Below the pieces are notes generated by a model. It was not told where the DNA came from. It made no database searches and was given only the letters and a program-made list of their open reading frames with translations. A DNA stretch of 9,401 bases from a virus (taxonomy: Duplodnaviria > Heunggongvirae > Uroviricota > Caudoviricetes): positions 1-9,401 of IMG/VR virus record IMGVR_UViG_2537561618_000016; one strand, 5' to 3'. Below, in pieces: positions 1 to 9,401 of the stretch. How positions within the stretch are numbered: the stretch's first letter is position 1; the number at the start of each line of letters is the position of its first letter. The position numbers and the translations under genes were made by a program.

Positions 1-554
1 TCAAACGCCCCGAATTGAAGCCAAATCATCCAGACCGCTCGGCTCCTCTTTCATTTCACGCTGACGGCGATAAATCTCGTCGTTGCGATCGACCTGCGCC
101 TGCACCATTGCTGCCGCCAGTTCTTCCAGTTCCGGCATCGACAGTTTCACCTGCTGATTATCGGCATCGCTCCACGCCATATGTGTTTGTGCTGTGACAG
201 ATTTTGCCAGCATGACTACCGGGGACAGGCGGCCCAGTGAGTCGGGGCCAGCATTCCAGATACGACCGTTCCATTCAAACGTGAACGGCTTCGCCTCCTG
301 TTCTGCGCGCCATGCTTCAATTTCCTGACGTCTGGCCTCTCTGGCCGCTTCCAGCATTTCTGGTGTCACAGTGAATGGGGCTATCTCACCCCATTTGCCA
401 CTTTGCAGTTCCTGCCAGATTTGCTGACCCGTCGGTGCGACATCATCAGCGGTGGCTGTGTAGGGGACTGCCTGGTCCCTGTCGTCAAAAAAACGTCACA
501 GTCTACTGCGCCACTTTCGGTATAACGGGGATTAATGATTTTTTTAATTTCCAC
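1..554 (-). pseudogene. Putative tail fibre assembly/chaperone protein of the second fibre cassette (DUF4376-like C-terminal domain), frameshifted as sequenced: N-terminal segment 497-554, C-terminal segment 1-495
   Basis: Minus-strand ORF 1-369 extends open to 495 in the same frame, with stop at 1-3. Its sequence (FEWNGRIWNAGPDS...WSDADNQQVKLSMPELEELAAAMVQAQ) fits the DUF4376 pattern seen in phage tail fibre assembly proteins. An upstream ORF in another frame (...TVEIKKIINPRYTESGAVDCDVF) joins it across a 7-A run at 487-493; one extra base would give a continuous ~184 aa protein. A GAGGA Shine-Dalgarno (562-566) sits 7 nt before a GTG at 554. It lies directly downstream of a tail fibre gene. 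Confidence 0.55.
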
Positions 555-561
555 GGTGCAT

Positions 562-566
562 TCCTC
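562..566 (-). promoter_or_regulatory. Shine-Dalgarno (GAGGA) for the second chaperone gene, 7 nt upstream of GTG start at 554
   Basis: Plus-strand tcctc at 562-566 is GAGGA on the coding strand, followed by a 7-nt spacer and GTG. Confidence 0.4.
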
Positions 567-692
567 ACGATGTGCGAATAAAAAGCCCGGGCATTGCGCC
601 AGAGACATGTGCATCCGGCACCCCGGACAGGGCGCAATATGACCCCGGTAATGAATGCTCTGAACATCCCGTAATGAAAAATTGTGGGGATA

Positions 693-1979
693 CTATATAC
701 GTTCCGGTGGGAGTACTGGGCACTGAAATCCCCACCGGTCCCAGTCGTGAGCCTCTGTATGACTGCCCCCTGACAAGTCTGATGACTTTATCACCGTCAG
801 CTTCTCCTGGTACGCAGCAATAATCAGCCCGCCAATGTCAGGGTCTCCCCATCTGTTGCGGACAGAGCTCGCCACGATTCTGTAAATAATATCTTCTGTG
901 GTTATATTTATTTTCACCCAGCCAGTCAGTCTGGATATGGGCCAGTAGCAGTAGCGGGTGTGATAAATGGGGCCGTTAATGCCGTAAAAAGTAAGGGATT
1001 TGGCTCTGTACCGCGGTTCTGTTGTCTCAGGGCGTGCATCAGTCCACCGGATGCTGAGCACCCCTTCAAACCGTGTGTCGGGTATGATGATGCCGTAAGG
1101 GCCAGCAACGGAATATTCACCTGGCAGCGCATTCCTTACCCAGGCCAGGAAATCACTCTTAGTGTCAAAACGGATAACATCTTCAGGCAGAAAAGCACAC
1201 CCAAAGCCGAATGCGCCGGGTATCGCCAGACGGCCTTTTGTCCGGTCGTAAATGTCGCTCTGTGCTTCCATCGTGGCCGCACTTTTCAGCCCCAGATTAT
1301 CCCGGGACTTCTGTTGTGCCTTTTCGCCTGCTGCTGCGATTTCAGACAGATGGTTAGCCGTTTTCAGAGTGCCGGTCAGCGCAGCATCAATGTCATTTTT
1401 GGCCTGCTCTGCTGCGCGGGCATAACCTGCGGCATCCTGTGCGCTCTGTCCGGCTGCGGCTGCATTTGCTCCTGTGCTTGTCACATCTTCCGCAGTGGCC
1501 TTTCTGTCCTCAGCTGTGACGGTTGCATCCTGTCGGGCTTTCTCCGCAAAACGTTGTGCATCATCACGGGCCGTTGCGGCTGCCGCCACATCCTGCGCCG
1601 TCTGCTGTGCGTTTCCGGCTGCGGCCCCGGCGCTCTGCTGCGCCTGCGCCACCATTTCCTCAAAGCGTTTGACGACATCCGGTTTCAGGTCGCCCTCATC
1701 AGGAGCAATCAGAAAGTCATTCAGCGTGCCGGGCTTTGAGTCCTCATATACAGCAATGTCGCCAACGTTGTACTCGTTGCGCCAGTCCTGTTTCAGATAC
1801 ACACCATATTTTCCAGTCCGCGCATGGAAACAGTATTCACCATCGTTTCCTGTCATCACATCAGCAACAGTGTTCATCACCACTTCCGGGGTGTTTACCC
1901 GGGATTTCAGAATAATATGGTATCCGGACATGGGGATACCTGCGCCATCAGTCAGCGCACCTGATATCACTACAGACAT
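693..1979 (-). CDS. Tail fibre protein (428 aa) with lambda Stf-like N-terminal anchor domain and Ala/Gln-rich shaft
   Basis: The N-terminus MSVVISGALTDGAG...VYEDSKPGTLNDFL closely follows the conserved N-terminus of lambda Stf and lambdoid prophage side tail fibres (MAVKISGVLKDG...TVYEDSQPGTLNDFL, from memory), followed by a low-complexity Ala-rich region. ATG at 1979 lies 23 nt after the upstream chaperone stop; stop TAG at 693-695. Confidence 0.8.
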   Translation of the reverse strand: MSVVISGALTDGAGIPMSGYHIILKSRVNTPEVVMNTVADVMTGNDGEYCFHARTGKYGVYLKQDWRNEYNVGDIAVYEDSKPGTLNDFLIAPDEGDLKPDVVKRFEEMVAQAQQSAGAAAGNAQQTAQDVAAAATARDDAQRFAEKARQDATVTAEDRKATAEDVTSTGANAAAAGQSAQDAAGYARAAEQAKNDIDAALTGTLKTANHLSEIAAAGEKAQQKSRDNLGLKSAATMEAQSDIYDRTKGRLAIPGAFGFGCAFLPEDVIRFDTKSDFLAWVRNALPGEYSVAGPYGIIIPDTRFEGVLSIRWTDARPETTEPRYRAKSLTFYGINGPIYHTRYCYWPISRLTGWVKINITTEDIIYRIVASSVRNRWGDPDIGGLIIAAYQEKLTVIKSSDLSGGSHTEAHDWDRWGFQCPVLPPERI

Positions 1980-2002
1980 TGTTTTTCTCGCGATAAATTA
2001 AA

Positions 2003-2547
2003 TCAGGAAGAACCTTCCGGAGAGGCGGGCCATTCAATGGCGTTGTATGAGGATTTATCAGTGATGGTGCTGAAATCCATCGCCTGCAGCGATTTCGCGT
2101 AAATACGACAGGCTTTCAGCTTTTCTTTATCTTCGTCGCTGATTAACCCCAGCAGCAGGTCTTCTTCCCATTCCCCTGTCCGGGCACTGACCTGAGCCAG
2201 AAGGGCATCACGCTCATCTTCCGCTTTGAGTCTGTAGTCAAAGACAAATTCATCATTGCGGTAAAACCAGTAACCCGGCGCGGTAATCCGTCGGTTAGTG
2301 GTAATATCCGGAACTTCGATAACGCTGGCATTGCGTGGCTCGATGCCTGTCACATCCTTACCGACCCACACCACGCGACCATCTCCGGTGTAAGCTATTT
2401 TTATTGTGTCGCTGGCGAAATTCTTCAGCTCTTCATACCAGTTTTTCCGTCTTCTGAAAAAAGCCAGGTGACCGAATATCGTTTTGTCATCTGATATTGT
2501 TCTGCTGTTTTCGGATTACCCGCAGTAATATTTTTTAAATGCAACAT
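2003..2547 (-). pseudogene. Tail fibre assembly protein (lambda Tfa / e14 TfaE family), frameshifted as sequenced at a 5-T run (plus 2442-2446)
   Basis: ATG at 2547-2545 encodes [35 protein letters not shown], matching the canonical Tfa N-terminus ([19 protein letters not shown]...YTEDGKNWYEE). After the A5 run the Tfa sequence continues in the -1 frame (NWYEELKNF...SVIEVPDITTNRR...ISDEDKEKLKACRIYAKSL...IEWPASPE) to the stop at 2003-2005. One extra A restores a ~181 aa protein. The start is 2 nt after the fibre stop, suggesting translational coupling. Confidence 0.85.
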
Positions 2548-3035
2548 TGTTAAATACTCGCTACGTTATACCAGGTGCCATTAATCAGTTTTTGCAGTGG
2601 TCGGTAATACACACCGTCAACGTTATCCGCTGAGTTACGGCCGGTATCCGATATCGCCATCCCTGACAGCCCGTGTCCCGAAGGTGCGCAAAATCTCCAC
2701 GAAACGGTGTTACTGCCGGGGCTGTAATACATTTCATGGCCATACCGTACATCCTGTACCCCCTCTGTTCGATATTTATAGCGGGCATCGAAGTTTCCGT
2801 AATTTAACGGAATTACCTGTCCGTTAACAGTGAACACTATGCTGTTATCCGGGTTTCTCTGGCTGAAAAAATGCCAGCCTGAATCATCACCAAGCTCTGC
2901 AACAACAGGCCTGGATGGATTACCCCACAAATAAAACGCTGCATTTTTCGTGGAGTTGTTGGCGCTGGATAACGTGAATTTTCTGGCAGTTCCGGCCTGA
3001 ATATTCTTAAAAGCAATAGCCACTCCATTCTGAAA

Positions 3036-3040
3036 GCGGA
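3036..3040. repeat. IS2 target site duplication, left copy (GCGGA)
   Basis: Identical 5-mer gcgga immediately flanks both IS2 ends (3036-3040 and 4372-4376); IS2 makes 5-bp duplications. Confidence 0.85.
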
Positions 3041-3081
3041 TAGACTGGCCCCCTGAATCTCCAGACAACCAGTATCACTTA
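3041..3081. repeat. IS2 left terminal inverted repeat (approx. 41 bp, imperfect)
   Basis: Aligned by eye against the reverse complement of 4331-4371; shared TCCAGACA and TATCACTTA blocks with one gap. Confidence 0.7.
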
Positions 3082-3131
3082 TTTAAGTGATAGTCTTAAT
3101 ACTAGTTTTTAGACTAGTCATTGGAGAACAG

Positions 3132-3497
3132 ATGATTGATGTCTTAGGGCCGGAGAAACGCAGACGGCGTACCACACAGGAAAAGATCGCAATTGTTCAG
3201 CAGAGCTTTGAACCGGGGATGACGGTCTCCCTCGTTGCCCGGCAACATGGTGTAGCAGCCAGCCAGTTATTTCTCTGGCGTAAGCAATACCAGGAAGGAA
3301 GTCTTACTGCTGTGGCCGCCGGAGAACAGGTTGTTCCTGCCTCTGAACTTGCTGCCGCCATGAAGCAGATTAAAGAACTCCAGCGCCTGCTCGGCAAGAA
3401 AACGATGGAAAATGAACTCCTCAAAGAAGCCGTTGAATATGGACGGGCAAAAAAGTGGATAGCGCACGCGCCCTTATTGCCCGGGGATGGGGAGTAA
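3132..3497 (+). CDS. insC: IS2 transposase OrfA (InsC), 121 aa
   Basis: [56 protein letters not shown]... matches IS2 InsC. GGAGA Shine-Dalgarno at 3123-3127 precedes ATG 3132; the ORF-track start at 3087 is an upstream extension. Confidence 0.9.
3449..3455 (+). other. IS2 programmed -1 ribosomal frameshift heptamer A AAA AAG (makes the InsCD fusion transposase)
   Basis: The heptamer is in the insC zero frame (gca aaa aag tgg); the insD frame is -1 and open from this point. Confidence 0.8.
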
Positions 3498-4360
3498 GCT
3501 TAGTCAGCCGTTGTCTCCGGGTGTCGCGTGCGCAGTTGCACGTCATTCTCAGACGAACCGATGACTGGATGGATGGCCGCCGCAGTCGTCACACTGATGA
3601 TACGGATGTGCTTCTCCGTATACACCATGTTATCGGAGAGCTGCCCACGTATGGTTATCGTCGGGTATGGGCGCTGCTTCGCAGACAGGCAGAACTTGAT
3701 GGTATGCCTGCGATCAATGCCAAACGTGTTTACCGGCTCATGCGCCAGAATGCGCTGTTGCTTGAGCGAAAACCTGCTGTACCGCCATCGAAACGGGCAC
3801 ATACAGGCAGAGTGGCCGTGAAAGAAAGCAATCAGCGATGGTGCTCTGACGGGTTCGAGTTCTGCTGTGATAACGGAGAGAGACTGCGTGTCACGTTCGC
3901 GCTGGACTGCTGTGATCGTGAGGCACTGCACTGGGCGGTGACTACCGGCGGCTTCAACAGTGAAACAGTACAGGACGTCATGCTGGGAGCGGTGGAACGC
4001 CGCTTCGGCAACGATCTTCCGTCGTCTCCAGTGGAGTGGCTGACGGATAATGGTTCATGCTACCGGGCTAATGAAACACGCCAGTTCGCCCGGATGTTGG
4101 GACTTGAACCGAAGAACACGGCGGTGCGGAGTCCGGAGAGTAACGGAATAGCAGAGAGCTTCGTGAAAACGATAAAGCGTGACTACATCAGTATCATGCC
4201 CAAACCAGACGGGTTAACGGCAGCAAAGAACCTTGCAGAGGCGTTCGAGCATTATAACGAATGGCATCCGCATAGTGCGCTGGGTTATCGCTCGCCACGG
4301 GAATATCTGCGGCAGCGGGCTTGTAATGGGTTAAGTGATAACAGATGTCTGGAAATATAG
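3455..4360 (+). CDS. insD: IS2 transposase OrfB (InsD), DDE catalytic domain, 301 aa; expressed as InsCD fusion by -1 frameshift
   Basis: The 301-aa ORF in the -1 frame relative to insC matches IS2 InsD (...[42 protein letters not shown]...). Confidence 0.9.
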
Positions 4361-4371
4361 GGGCAAATCCA
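4331..4371. repeat. IS2 right terminal inverted repeat (approx. 41 bp, imperfect)
   Basis: The reverse complement TGGATTTGCCCCTATATTTCCAGACATCTGTTATCACTTA aligns with the left end. Confidence 0.7.
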
Positions 4372-4376
4372 GCGGA
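4372..4376. repeat. IS2 target site duplication, right copy (GCGGA)
   Basis: See the left copy at 3036-3040. Confidence 0.85.
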
Positions 4377-5257
4377 ATACACGCTGACTATTAGCATAAA
4401 CATCCAGAATACCGTCTCCATTCTGTTTAAATCCGGTGTCATTATCACCAAGAACAATTGAATTCCCCCCCAGGGCGTTCTGAACGCCGATACCCAGCGC
4501 ACCATTGACCTGCGAACCACCGCCAACAGACACTTTATGCGACATGGATATTTCACCCGTCCGCAAATTAATGGTGAACGGGCGCAGGGGACCAATATCG
4601 CCATTTTCCCCCTGACCTTCACTGGTGGGAATAAGGTGCAGGCACTCTTCCGAACGACGAAAAATCAGGCCAAAAGCTTCGTTGAAAATCCTCAGCGCAT
4701 TAACACCACGGATTTTCAGCTCTCCGGTTATTTTATCGCCTTCCCGATGAACATAGCGTTGATCTGACTGCTCTTTACTGTAAACCTGAAGATTATCCCG
4801 TGCCGTCCCTTTATTCTGAAGGTCTGACAGATTGTTCTTCTGCCGCAGGAATATCCTTTTCGGATCCTCAAGAAGATTTACCCAGCCCGCACTGTCGGAG
4901 CCTTCAGGATCGGTCAGGTTATCGTCCGTGGTATTCAGCCAGACCGCTGTTGTTGCGACTCCGGCGAGAATGGCTCCTTTTGCATATCCACCAATGGCCC
5001 CCGCAAAACCGGCATTATACGTGTACAAACCGCCAGCCTGGGCGAACCGTATTGCTGCGGTAATATCGTACATCAGACCGTTAAAATCCTTGCCGTGTGG
5101 CGGTATACCTCCCGCTGAGACCGCTGTCATGGTCACCGGAGGAAAACCTGAATCATACGCAGCATTACCGCTCTCTCTGGTCTGCTGTGTCGCCTTGTCC
5201 GGGATACGGTTTTTATCTCCGGTACTCGCAAAGGGGACCGCCAGCTGGCGGGGTTTA

Positions 5258-5863
5258 TCACTGGCCTTCATTACGGGACTCCTTTAAAACTACTGAAACA
5301 TAAACACCCGGCGGGGATGGCAGTGCACCCGACGACTGGATAATCGCCAGTTCTGCCAACGAGAGCGCGGACTCAAAGACGTAACTCATCCTCAGCCCGC
5401 CATTATTCAGAACATAAGCCCGGCGTTTTTTTCCGAACATAAATCTCAGCATCAGGTTAATATCCGGAACGGAACAGTCAGTAATGTTCGACATGGCTTT
5501 CATCAGTATCAGCCGCCAGTATACAGCATCAGACAGGTCAACAGTCCGGGTATCCGATTTTCCGTTGTAAAACGGTGCCTGATTAAACGGACAGGGATCA
5601 TCCATTACCGGGGTGTCCATCCTGGACTCGCTGAAGCCCAGGTAATTAAAATCGTCCTTTACCGTCAGCCAGCAACTGACACCCACAATCTTTCCCCAGA
5701 CATCAAGACCATACTTTTCTGCGGTATCGATGTTCCAGATAAGACCATAAAAATCACTGATAAAACTGTCGGGGGAAAGCGCTGCGTTAAAGCTGTTAAT
5801 GAGGGCATTGAGTCGGGGGCTGGCAGCATACTGCGCAAGCACAGTGGCAGCCACATTCTGCAC
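5258..5863 (-). CDS. Phage tail/baseplate-associated protein in the gpI (P2) / gp48 (Mu) / YmfQ (e14) position, 201 aa
   Basis: Intact ORF with GTG start at 5863 preceded by a GGAGG Shine-Dalgarno (5871-5875), 1 nt after the upstream stop. Its 3' end overlaps the fibre start by 14 nt. It sits between a J-like gene and the tail fibre, as in the P2 J-I-H-G and Mu gp47-gp48-S-U order. The family assignment is by synteny and size, not a confident sequence match. Confidence 0.6.
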
Positions 5864-5864
5864 G

Positions 5865-6566
5865 TTATGCCTCCTGGAGTTTCACACTGATATCCGACAC
5901 ATCCAGAACCGGAATCTCATCTATCCCGAAAGTGACAGCCGTTGTCCATGACGAACCATCACGGCTCACAGTAAGGCCCAGAATATCAATATGTTCCGGA
6001 TCGGTTTTGTAAATGCCGGCATAGTAGCGCCCGGCAGAGACAACAGAGGCAACTCTTGCCCGCAGACCACCATCTGTACCATTAAATGCGTCCAGCACGG
6101 ATTGCTGTACCTGTCGGGTAATATCTGAAGGCAGGTAGTCACTTTTTTTCAGCGTCACACTGACATGCAGACTGACGGGTTTGAGTGTCTGCCAGCTGAT
6201 CACGTATTCAGGATACGGCGGATCGTACTCCTTATCTGCAACAGTGAACGTTGTGTTGCCATTCATATCAATACCCGGCGGAGCCTTACGCCAGATGGCC
6301 GCCGCGATATCTGCCGGGCTGCCGCCGTACACGCCAACATAAAGCGAACCGGGTGTTAATGGATACTGACTGACTCCGGCTTTTTGTTCTGTTTTTTTCG
6401 GATTATGGGTGACGTAAACATCCACCACGTTTTCTACCGTGGAGAGTATTTCACCCCGGATGGCTTCCAGAATATTCCGGGCATTACGGGCAACTGAATT
6501 ACGTCGGCGGTTTTCAAAGTCCGCACGGGTTTCCTCATCGCTGCCCGGCACACCGGCACGGGCGTT
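5865..6566 (-). pseudogene. Baseplate assembly protein J-like (P2 gpJ / Mu gp47 position), 5'-truncated at the IS600-like element
   Basis: The reading frame is open from the IS boundary (6566) to the stop at 5865-5867 (233 codons), with no credible start or Shine-Dalgarno. It is immediately upstream of the gpI-like gene. The J-family assignment is by synteny only. Confidence 0.5.
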
Positions 6567-6630
6567 TGAGGTAGCCTGAGTTTAACGGACACTCCTTCCT
6601 GAAATAGAATGGCATCAGAAGGAGCTAATA

Positions 6631-6918
6631 ATGAGCAGAAAAACCCAACGTTACTCTAAAGAGTTCAAAGCCGAAGCTGTCAGAACGGTTCTTGAAAATC
6701 AACTTTCGATCAGTGAAGGCGCTTCCCGATTATCTCTTCCTGAAGGCACTTTAGGACAATGGGTTACCGCCGCCAGAAAAGGGCTCGGTACTCCTGGTTC
6801 CCGCACGGTGGCTGAACTGGAATCTGAAATTCTGCAACTGCGTAAGGCGTTAAATGAAGCTCGCCTTGAGCGAGATATATTAAAAAAGCAACAGCGTATT
6901 TTGCACAGGAGTCACTGA
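6631..6918 (+). CDS. IS600-like transposase OrfA (HTH DNA-binding), 95 aa as sequenced
   Basis: MSRKTQRYSKEFKAEAVRTVLENQLSISEGASRLSLPEGTLGQWV...LERDILKK is an IS3-family OrfA. The C-terminal tail KQQRILHRSH looks aberrant; the -1 frame gives the expected ATAYFAQESLKNTR ending. Confidence 0.85.
   Translation: MSRKTQRYSKEFKAEAVRTVLENQLSISEGASRLSLPEGTLGQWVTAARKGLGTPGSRTVAELESEILQLRKALNEARLERDILKKQQRILHRSH
6882..6888 (+). other. A AAA AAG slippery heptamer of IS600-like orfA (A6 tract); orfB frame opens here but is +1, not -1, to orfA
   Basis: Codons tta aaa aag are in the orfA frame; the orfB frame (KSNSVFCTGVTEKYALIEQWRQQFPIEVMCQVF...) is open from 6884. Confidence 0.6.
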
Positions 6919-6964
6919 AAAATACGCGTTAATCGAACAATGGCGACAACAATTTCCCATTGAA

Positions 6965-7786
6965 GTGATGTGTCAGGTATTTGGTGTATCCAGGAGCGGT
7001 TATTACAACTGGGTACAGCATGAACCCTCAGACAGAAAACAAAGTGATGAGCGGCTAAAACTGGAGATTAAGGTGGCACATATCCGCACTCGCGAAACAT
7101 ATGGAACCCGGCGGCTCCAGACGGAGCTGGCAGAGAATGGCATCATCGTTGGTCGTGACCGACTGGCACGTCTTCGTAAGGAGCTGAGGCTACGCTGTAA
7201 GCAGAAACGCAAGTTCAGAGCGACTACGAACCCGAACCACAATCTGCCAGTTGCGCCAAATCTGCTGAACCAGACGTTCGCTCCTACAGCACCAAATCAA
7301 GTCTGGGTGGCGGACCTGACGTATGTTGCCACACAGGAAGGATGGTTGTACCTCGCTGGCATCAAAGATGTTTATACGTGCGAAATTGTCGGCTACGCCA
7401 TGGGAGAGCGCATGACAAAAGAGCTGACAGGTAAAGCCCTGTTTATGGCGCTCAGGAGCCAGCGCCCACCTGCCGGGCTAATCCACCACTCTGATCGAGG
7501 TTCACAGTACTGCGCATACGATTACCGGGTCATACAGGAGCAGTTTGGTCTGAAAACATCAATGTCGCGTAAAGGTAACTGTTACGACAACGCTCCGATG
7601 GAAAGCTTCTGGGGAACGCTGAAAAATGAGAGCCTGAGCCACTATCGTTTTAATAACCGGGATGAAGCCATCTCAGTAATACGGGAATACATTGAGATTT
7701 TCTACAATCGTCAGCGTCGTCACTCTCGTCTGGGGAATATCTCCCCGGCAGCCTTCAGGGAAAAACATCATCAGATGGCTGCTTAA
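6965..7786 (+). CDS. IS600-like transposase OrfB (DDE integrase-type catalytic domain), 273 aa from the first in-frame start; frame open from 6884
   Basis: IS3-family OrfB hallmarks: SRSGYYNW, WVADLTY, HSDRGSQY, NAPMESFWGTLK, YNRQRRHS. Confidence 0.85.
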   Translation: MMCQVFGVSRSGYYNWVQHEPSDRKQSDERLKLEIKVAHIRTRETYGTRRLQTELAENGIIVGRDRLARLRKELRLRCKQKRKFRATTNPNHNLPVAPNLLNQTFAPTAPNQVWVADLTYVATQEGWLYLAGIKDVYTCEIVGYAMGERMTKELTGKALFMALRSQRPPAGLIHHSDRGSQYCAYDYRVIQEQFGLKTSMSRKGNCYDNAPMESFWGTLKNESLSHYRFNNRDEAISVIREYIEIFYNRQRRHSRLGNISPAAFREKHHQMAA

Positions 7787-7829
7787 AAAAAGAACAAATG
7801 GTAGTGTCCGCTATTGCCAGTACACCTCA

Positions 7830-8926
7830 TTTTACAGCCCCGTCCGGGCTGTATGTTTTCACCAGCTTATCCAGTGATCGTTTTGAAAATGGCTGCATTG
7901 GATCACGTGGCTGCAAAAATACATAATCCCTGTTGCACTCAGGAACTGAATCACGCCAGGCTTTCTGCTCGTCGATAATCCGCCGGATCTCAGGCGTTAT
8001 CGGCAGGCGGAAAGCCTTTTGTGTTTTCATAGCCCCTCGCATGCCGATAACCCCTTCCGGATAAACAATTTCACCAGCCTCCTCGTAAACGTAGTCCCAG
8101 CGCAGGTTATGGACATTAATCGGACGAACACCAGTGATGATCATGAAGCGAACAGCATTCTTCTGGTGTACAGAGGTGCAGGCAGCAACATTGAGCCAGA
8201 GTCGGGCGATTGATTCAATATCGGTAAAAAGCCGTGTGGGGGTAGGTTTCTGTACGCGGGAGGAAACATAATCATCTGGCAGACTGGCGGCAACATTGCG
8301 GCCGTTGCAAAGAGTAGGTGCGCAGAACTTCCAGAACCGACGGAGCTCGGCAAACAACTCCAGGGCGTTATTGTTCGAGCGAGTGGCGATCCACTCGTCC
8401 AGCACTTCCACCAGCCGATTGTATGTTACGTCGCTGAACACCTCACGCTCGCCGAACGTTGCTTTAATCCGGTCGATACGCACCCCGTAGGTTGTGAAAC
8501 TGTCCGGGCTCAGCTTCTGCCGGGCTACTTTGGCTTTGGGTCATCCCGGTACATTTCCAGCGCTGCATGTACGGACTCTGCCCGCAGTCCACCGTCAGCC
8601 ATACCTAGTGCTTTTTCGCGCGCCAGCTGGATAACGAGCTCCGGCCACTCGCCGAGCTTTTTACCTTTGAGGCCCATCTTTTTTGGAAACTCGGCGTAAA
8701 ATGTAACCTTACCGGCTTTGCTGAAATCGATACGGAGATAGTTCTCTTTTTCGTATTTGGAACGGCGAGCCACGCCGGAAGCAGCGAGGATGATTTTGGC
8801 GGCAGCAACACAGATTTTCATGTGTGCGCTGGTATAGGGGGGTTTACAGGCGTCCCATTTTTCAGATGCGGCTAAAACATCGTCATTATTGGGGCTATCC
8901 GGATTATGTGTTACAGTGCGCGGCAT
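7830..8926 (-). pseudogene. Phage integrase (tyrosine recombinase, P4-type with arm-binding N-terminal domain), frameshifted near 8529-8537 and 3'-truncated by the IS600-like element
   Basis: ATG at 8926 with AAGGA Shine-Dalgarno. The N-terminal segment (...KVTFYAEFPKKMGLKGKKLGEWPELVIQLAREKA...) resembles the P4-type arm-binding domain and stops at 8525. The downstream segment continues in the -1 frame from 8540 and carries box I (ITGVRPINVHNLRWDYV) and the lysine hairpin (MKTQKAFRLPITPEI). The frame runs into the IS terminus at 7829, and the catalytic H-x-x-R and Tyr regions are absent. Confidence 0.75.
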
Positions 8927-9131
8927 TCTCAATCCTTATCTGCGTAGGCGCAGAAAACAAGCTCACACATACAAGTCTTTTCTACGGGACAAAATGCAAT
9001 GTGTTGCGGTTTTGTGTTGCTGGACTGAGTTTATCAAGGTTAAATACACTGGATCAACATACAGTAAGTTAATGACAGTAAAGCATACAAACTCGATACA
9101 ACTTACTGATTTTAAAATGATTTAACGGTAA

Positions 9132-9401
<270 letters not shown>

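Follow-up and report, generated by a model that had tools for sequence, protein, structure and literature searches.

Members of the IS3 family of insertion sequences (IS), among them IS600, IS2, and IS911, are known for programmed -1 frameshifting at A6G or A7 slippery sites in the orfA/orfB overlap. In canonical IS600, orfB lies in the -1 frame behind an A7 tract, an arrangement that the Prokaryotic Genome Annotation Pipeline (PGAP) annotates as a programmed frameshift. Changes in reading frame are also familiar from the pseudogenisation and IS-driven reduction of Shigella genomes, including their ipaH islands, from the phase-variable contingency loci of Neisseria, Haemophilus, and Campylobacter, and from homopolymer miscalls in 454, Ion Torrent, and unpolished PacBio or Nanopore data. 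Here, we compare these systems with a stretch of 9,401 nucleotides from the IMG/VR record IMGVR_UViG_2537561618_000016 (hereafter the window, meaning the whole stretch that was analysed). The window corresponds to AFHC01000047.1:240-9640, a contig of the 2011 draft of Shigella flexneri 4343-70 (assembly GCA_000213475.2), and comprises, between yfhH and yfhL, the right end of a prophage remnant that carries ipaH, with ipaH itself just past the window start. An original prediction, made from the letters of the window, held that four of its genes, those for the tail-fibre assembly protein Tfa, a DUF4376 protein, the IS600 transposase, and an integrase, are all frameshifted by one-base contractions of A/T homopolymers. 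Genomes that share the locus bear this out for Tfa, DUF4376, and IS600, where the tract is one base short, but not for the integrase, which lost a lone base. Our comparison suggests that the three A/T tract contractions are likely to be length miscalls of sequencing or assembly. The original prediction had weighed under-calling against slipped-strand decay and chosen neither; under-calling is favoured at these three tracts, whereas the integrase lesion is real and inherited.

The features that bear on this finding are the following (window coordinates; aa, amino acids; ORF, open reading frame):

1-614, minus strand: DUF4376 gene (Pfam PF14301), last of the tail-fibre module, split in the window into ORFs of 77 and 122 aa
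487-493: A7 tract (T7 on the coding strand); A8 or A9 in same-locus genomes
2003-2547, minus strand: Tfa gene (Caudo_TAP, Pfam PF02413), split in the window into ORFs of 40 and 123 aa
2442-2446: T5 tract (A5 on the coding strand); T6 in S. flexneri orthologues
6567-7829, plus strand: IS600, 1263 bp (canonical 1264 bp), joining a baseplate J fragment to an integrase fragment
6882-6887: A6 at the orfA/orfB frameshift site of IS600; A7 in canonical copies
7830-8926, minus strand: remnant (5' 1.1 kb) of a 465-aa tyrosine integrase of the yfhL-site island, frameshifted at 8538^8539, with the last 99 residues gone
8538-8539: site of the one-base deletion in the integrase (an A lost on the plus strand, the T of CC[T]CAAA on the coding strand)

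Products of ORFs in the window match EGJ84331, EGJ84333, EGJ84335, EGJ84341, and EGJ84343 of S. flexneri 4343-70 exactly, and the assembly accession is confirmed in PMC6397287. Literature searches for the sequencing platform of the assembly returned this accession and did not return the platform. Two exact-protein look-ups, one of them with a 228-aa baseplate fragment whose ORF occurs in 467 blocks of the collection, yielded approximately 20 independent assemblies of the same locus (labelled L0xx), and 18 homopolymer tracts were tabulated in each. Assemblies without private indels are L009, L011, L032, L033, and L038; others named below include L013 (CP026776.1, FDA-ARGOS), L034 (JARGEV010000001.1), L035 (CP037996.1), L036 (CP128220.1), and L037 (CP130063.1). 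Drafts with neighbouring accession numbers (K-218, AFGZ, and AFGW) are referred to as sibling drafts. This comparison with orthologous loci, which the original prediction had proposed as a check, located the short tracts in no polished genome.

Specifically, the five assemblies without private indels, and also L007, L008, and L010, have C3 at each of two C runs near the left end, T6 in the Tfa gene, A7 in IS600, and A8 or A9 at 487. Short tracts were identified only in the window, in sibling drafts, and in closed genomes with several other private homopolymer deletions (L035, L036, and L037). Among the sibling drafts, K-218 has A6 in IS600, its sole short tract of the set, plus five other private indel events; AFGZ has A7 in the DUF4376 gene and T5 together with A7 in IS600; and a paralogue in AFGW has T5. 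Among the closed genomes, L036 has T5 plus three other private deletions, L037 has A7 in the DUF4376 gene plus three others, and L035 has A5 in IS600. Strain 4343-70 shares A6 with K-218 only, and T5 combined with A7 with AFGZ only. Because these tract combinations are incongruent, shared descent does not explain them.

The affected sites are not a random sample of the window. Runs of A or T of at least five bases make up approximately 198 of its 9,401 bases (2.1%), and the probability that three of the four predicted sites would fall in such runs is approximately 4 x 10^-5 (binomial estimate); the association of the sites with homopolymers is therefore not due to chance. Between positions 1575 and 9401, the window differs from L011 by one substitution and two one-base homopolymer gaps. 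All five private or near-private one-base indels in the window are located in runs (A7, T5, A6, C4, and C2), and the affected runs comprise approximately 3 of 16 runs of at least six bases versus 2 of approximately 317 three-mers. The long C7 and T7 runs that the original prediction cited as unaffected do exist, at 4465-4471 and 6143-6149 rather than near 4463-4469 and at 6144-6150.

The Tfa gene was predicted to have A5 where A6 is needed, and this was borne out: on the plus strand the window has T5 at 2442-2446, and every polished same-locus S. flexneri genome has T6. The tract is followed by CC in same-locus S. flexneri, and enteroinvasive Escherichia coli (EIEC) has TTTTTG or T7. One added T yields a 181-aa Tfa identical to an allele present on 931 contigs, and all polished same-locus genomes encode an intact Tfa of 181 aa. 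The 40-aa fragment, by comparison, was identified on three contigs, all from sibling drafts. Reading the lesion as the loss of a flanking G, after the EIEC sequence TTTTTGCC, was rejected: the closer S. flexneri orthologues read TTTTTTCC, so that the change is a contraction of the T run. Apparent Illumina support for T5, in the form of 123-aa and 116-aa C-terminal fragments of Tfa on 30 and 2 contigs, was likewise rejected, as these contigs, the source draft aside, are short, begin only slightly upstream of the ORF, and fail to span the tract. The true Tfa gene of 4343-70 is thus very probably intact at 181 aa, as judged from its orthologues.

For the DUF4376 gene, the prediction of T7 where T8 is needed was likewise upheld, in that the plus strand of the window has A7 at 487-493 and its relatives have A8 or A9. 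The A8 form encodes an intact protein of 207 aa, with orthologues in EIEC and S. flexneri and 63 contigs that carry it. The A9 form is frameshifted into products of 41 and 169 aa, and the 41-aa product is present on 119 contigs, including Logan and ENA assemblies. Same-locus genomes with A9 are L007, L009, L011, L013, L033, L035, L036, L038, and L039, which come from several submitters and are joined by short-read assemblies; A8 is found in L008, L010, L032, L034, K-218, and EIEC. The exact 57-aa product of A7 was detected on one contig, that of the 4343-70 draft. A second, distinct locus of that draft also has A7-type products, as do drafts 2930-71 and K-671, and A7-type and A10-type products were confined to error-prone assemblies. 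Collectively, the distribution indicates a tract that is truly polymorphic (A8/A9) in S. flexneri, with natural slippage here taking the form of expansion. The nearest relatives of the window, L013 (A9) and L010 (A8), carry different alleles. Because both alleles occur among them, the gene in 4343-70 is probably either intact (A8) or truly frameshifted by expansion (A9), but not as the window presents it.

The third claim, that IS600 has A6 where A7 would restore the -1 arrangement, also held: A7 is present in the annotated canonical copy and in the same copy of all polished genomes. The window has orfA in frame 1 (6631) and orfB in frame 2 (6965), a +1 relation; the A7 of L003 and of all polished genomes brings orfB into -1. 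The window copy thus lacks the features of a functional programmed -1 frameshift, namely an A-rich heptamer with orfB open in the -1 frame. The resulting 95-aa OrfA was identified on two contigs (4343-70 and K-218) versus at least 1000 contigs for the canonical OrfA of 100 aa. We also considered A6G at 6882-6888 as a normal slippery site, with the lesion instead in the A5 at 6918-6922. This was rejected, as canonical IS600 has A7 at 6882 and an identical downstream A5. The A6 of the window is a defect or a miscall, not an alternative design, and the IS600 copy of 4343-70 is probably canonical. A side observation is that L013 carries a 1252-bp insertion (another IS) inside IS600 orfA, at the point matching window position 6728.

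The integrase differs from these three genes. The original prediction placed a missing A within 8529-8537; this was not supported, as the stretch reads TTTGGCTTT, has no run longer than three bases, and is unchanged in intact orthologues. Instead, the intact 465-aa orthologues of E. coli XH993, IAI1, and SI-NP020 have an extra A between 8538 and 8539 (GGCTTTG[A]GGTC). The deletion at 8538^8539 is present in all same-locus S. flexneri except L034. Its 133-aa product was identified on 994 contigs (NCBI and Logan, Illumina-based assemblies included), and a close variant of that product on at least 1000 contigs, including those of strains 301 and 2457T. Because the deletion is common to nearly all S. 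flexneri and is found on so many contigs, Illumina-based assemblies included, the lesion is a real, inherited pseudogene deletion rather than a homopolymer contraction.

The related claim, that one added base restores a full-length protein in each case, stood for Tfa (181 aa), yielded 204 aa for DUF4376, and failed for the integrase. Here, IS600 has cut away the 3' end of the gene at 7829/7830, so that a one-base repair recovers no more than 366 of 465 residues. Among the lost residues is the stretch with NTMCRKF, LCLHH, and AEHYDF, which we read as the catalytic Arg, His, and Tyr motifs. L034 retains the A at 8538^8539 yet already has the IS600 truncation; based on this one genome, the truncation is probably older than the one-base deletion. 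In E. coli IAI1 and XH993, the island to which this integrase belongs also has a DEAD/DEAH helicase and a helix-turn-helix (HTH) regulator; the integrase may not be the prophage's own.

The left end of the window carries further changes that the original prediction had missed, among them two private indels at the C runs noted above:

8-11: C4 tract, private to the window assembly; C3 in all other genomes
693-1979, minus strand: side-tail-fibre-like gene with a prophage tail fibre N-terminal domain (Pfam PF08400), 428 aa in the window
806-807: C2 tract, private to the window assembly; C3 elsewhere
1428-1574: in-frame segment of 147 nucleotides (49 Ala-rich residues), in no other same-locus genome

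The C2 tract shortens the product of the gene at 693-1979 from 471 to 428 aa; one added C gives a 471-aa protein that is one residue from WP_039066297. The C4 tract alters the C-terminus of the DUF4376 protein from ...SIRAFDVE to ...SIRGV, and as it lies ten bases from the true end of that gene, the window starts with a stop codon not present in other genomes. Repair of A7 to A8 alone therefore gives the 204 aa mentioned above, and A8 together with C3 at 8-11 gives the 207-aa type.

These left-end changes raise the best-surviving alternative, which we consider possible but doubtful: that positions ~1-1600 are a chimeric or collapsed consensus of paralogous stf-DUF4376-ipaH modules, with the C-run indels, the 147-nucleotide segment, and the private substitutions all arising from the mixing of copies. 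Positions 1-810, a region repeated in other ipaH islands of the genome, hold both C-run indels and three of the four private substitutions; the contig itself stops inside the ipaH repeat, 239 bp past the window start; and 4343-70 has at least one other DUF4376 copy. The metG-linked paralogous ipaH island (L027) also contains the 147-nucleotide segment, which no other same-locus genome has. However, it is also present in a 471-aa allele that is a real protein in closed Shigella genomes, so the segment is possibly a true recombinant allele; it is either that or an assembly chimera. L027, the one paralogue available, moreover has neither the C4 and C2 tracts nor the private bases at positions 41, 79, and 306, and copy mixing leaves the T5 and IS600 A6 sites unexplained. 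As an additional cause of the C-run changes, the mixing of paralogous copies in assembly is reasonable but unproven.

In the reading that we prefer, the lesions fall into two kinds, real inherited ones and length miscalls of sequencing or assembly. Those inherited are the IS2 insertion in the tail-fibre gene, the IS600 that replaced most of the prophage and cut both baseplate J and the integrase, and the base lost from the integrase. Miscalls in long runs would have rendered T6 as T5, A8 or A9 as A7, and A7 as A6. Miscalls in short C runs would have rendered C3 as C4 and C3 as C2 where the locus has paralogues elsewhere in the genome. Tract lengths and the frequencies of their products are direct observations; from these, we infer the read-level cause. 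The pattern is a familiar mark of homopolymer miscalls in drafts from flow-based chemistry or unpolished long reads, and Shigella drafts of 2011 whose proteins have EGJ or EGK accessions are presumably 454-based.

Several points weigh against attributing the short tracts to miscalls. Short-read contigs often break within the repeat, and few Illumina contigs cross the Tfa tract. The C-run changes affect 3-mers, a run length that flow-based sequencing rarely gets wrong at consensus level, and they possibly reflect paralogue mixing or real variation. A true A7 is possible given the natural A8/A9 variation of the DUF4376 tract. PGAP emits no proteins for frameshifted genes, so that the rarity of the fragments is partly an annotation bias; Logan and ENA calls are exempt from this bias, and among Logan and ENA assemblies no record of the 40-aa Tfa, the 95-aa OrfA, or the A7 products was found.

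A second alternative is that all of the one-base changes are real, strain-specific slipped-strand mutations in unselected prophage DNA, that is, erosion of the Shigella type. We regard this as unlikely, even though a defunct prophage imposes no selection against frameshifts, the A8/A9 polymorphism at the DUF4376 tract is genuine, and real small indels occur in polished relatives (e.g., the 4-nucleotide repeat deletions in L007 and L008). Five private or near-private one-base indels would be needed, versus four private substitutions in 9.4 kb. Sibling drafts and error-rich closed assemblies show the same contractions, in combinations unrelated to one another, and no polished assembly shows them; A7 appears at two separate paralogous loci of one draft. 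The 7.5 kb of housekeeping genes from acpS to lepA that flank the window on its contig are error-free, with no private difference detected, and this might be taken to favour real decay over artefact. We rejected the flank as counter-evidence because it contains only two runs of at least six bases, both T6; with so few long runs, a clean flank is little informative and fits run-length-dependent error as well as selection. Also unlikely is that the DUF4376 tract beside ipaH (7 to 10 bases) is a hypermutable slippage tract, with A7, and perhaps T5 and A6, real and with recurrent frame-switching in Shigella ipaH prophage remnants; nothing supports a contingency-locus reading of the tract beyond the A8/A9 difference between strains.

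The inherited lesions place the window in a broader context, for which the remaining features are as follows:

2550-5271, minus strand: main tail-fibre gene split by IS2 into an N-terminal fragment (4372-5271) and a C-terminal fragment (2550-3040)
3041-4371, plus strand: IS2, 1331 bp, with a normal A6G frameshift site (3449-3454) and a GCGGA duplication at 3036-3040 and 4372-4376
5258-5863, minus strand: DUF2612 baseplate-wedge gene (Pfam PF11041), intact, 201 aa
5865-6566, minus strand: 3' fragment of the baseplate J/gp47 gene, ~233 of 413 codons, the 5' part replaced by IS600
9141-9401, plus strand: yfhL (4Fe-4S ferredoxin), chromosomal flank

IS2 lies within the tail-fibre gene, flanked by a perfect 5-bp target duplication (GCGGA), and occupies an identical position in EIEC VL40, which has the same prophage at the same yfhH-yfhL site, and in all same-locus S. 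flexneri. In CFSAN029787, the gene is uninterrupted at 410 aa. The occurrence of IS2 in both EIEC VL40 and S. flexneri indicates that it was inserted before their split, or was inherited together with the prophage. IS600, in turn, lacks a target-site duplication (GTT at 6564-6566 versus TTT at 7830-7832) and links the baseplate J fragment to the integrase fragment, which identifies it as the mark of an IS-mediated deletion. The positions of both elements are identical in all same-locus S. flexneri genomes. No E. coli genome matches more than 52% of the window, the best relatives being EIEC, and in the phage collection the baseplate and tail module has no close relative at the DNA level (best ~88% identity over 380 nucleotides, phiP27 and Rac tail fibres).

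These results have consequences for how the locus is read. Frameshifts in runs of at least six bases of AFHC01 and the sibling Shigella drafts should not be counted as pseudogenes in studies of genome erosion, and annotation of the locus should take an intact 181-aa Tfa and a canonical IS600. The original prediction held that the tract lengths decide whether the chaperone genes are functional. However, the point is moot: most of the prophage genes are gone, the tail fibre is split by IS2, and both the baseplate and the integrase are cut by IS600. The prophage is dead, and whether the chaperones are intact has no functional consequence. The closed genomes L035, L036, and L037 show several private one- or two-base deletions over the 9-kb locus (e.g., A5 at the slippery sites of IS600 and IS2); these chromosomes look underpolished, and pseudogene counts that include them would be inflated. 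The pattern that was highlighted is ordinary and, as biology, is not a real feature; the integrase deletion and the lesions made by IS2 and IS600 are of the kind usual in the erosion of Shigella genomes.

Set against the systems outlined at the start, the locus resembles each in part. Like phase-variable contingency loci, the DUF4376 gene has a coding tract whose lengths of 7, 8, 9, and 10 switch the frame; unlike them, it resides in a dead prophage without an evident selectable phenotype, and its A7 and A10 forms are restricted to error-prone assemblies. As in the IS3 family, 6882-6887 is the exact IS600 slippery site, and IS2 in the window has the normal A6G. In contrast to that family, a -1 shift at the IS600 A6 would yield only the canonical OrfA tail and no transposase. 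As in Shigella pseudogenisation, the integrase deletion, the IS2 insertion, and the IS600 deletion are common across the S. flexneri lineage, and the DUF4376 A9 expansion is a real frameshift allele, whereas no polished genome shares the three short A/T tracts by descent. With homopolymer miscalls, the differences are that two of the five events are in 3-base C runs, one of them an insertion, and that the integrase site is outside the class. The likenesses are that the indels of the window are one-base events in mononucleotide runs, mostly deletions, that the chance of a miscall in the window rises with run length, and that the changes recur at the same tracts in other error-prone assemblies and not in polished ones.

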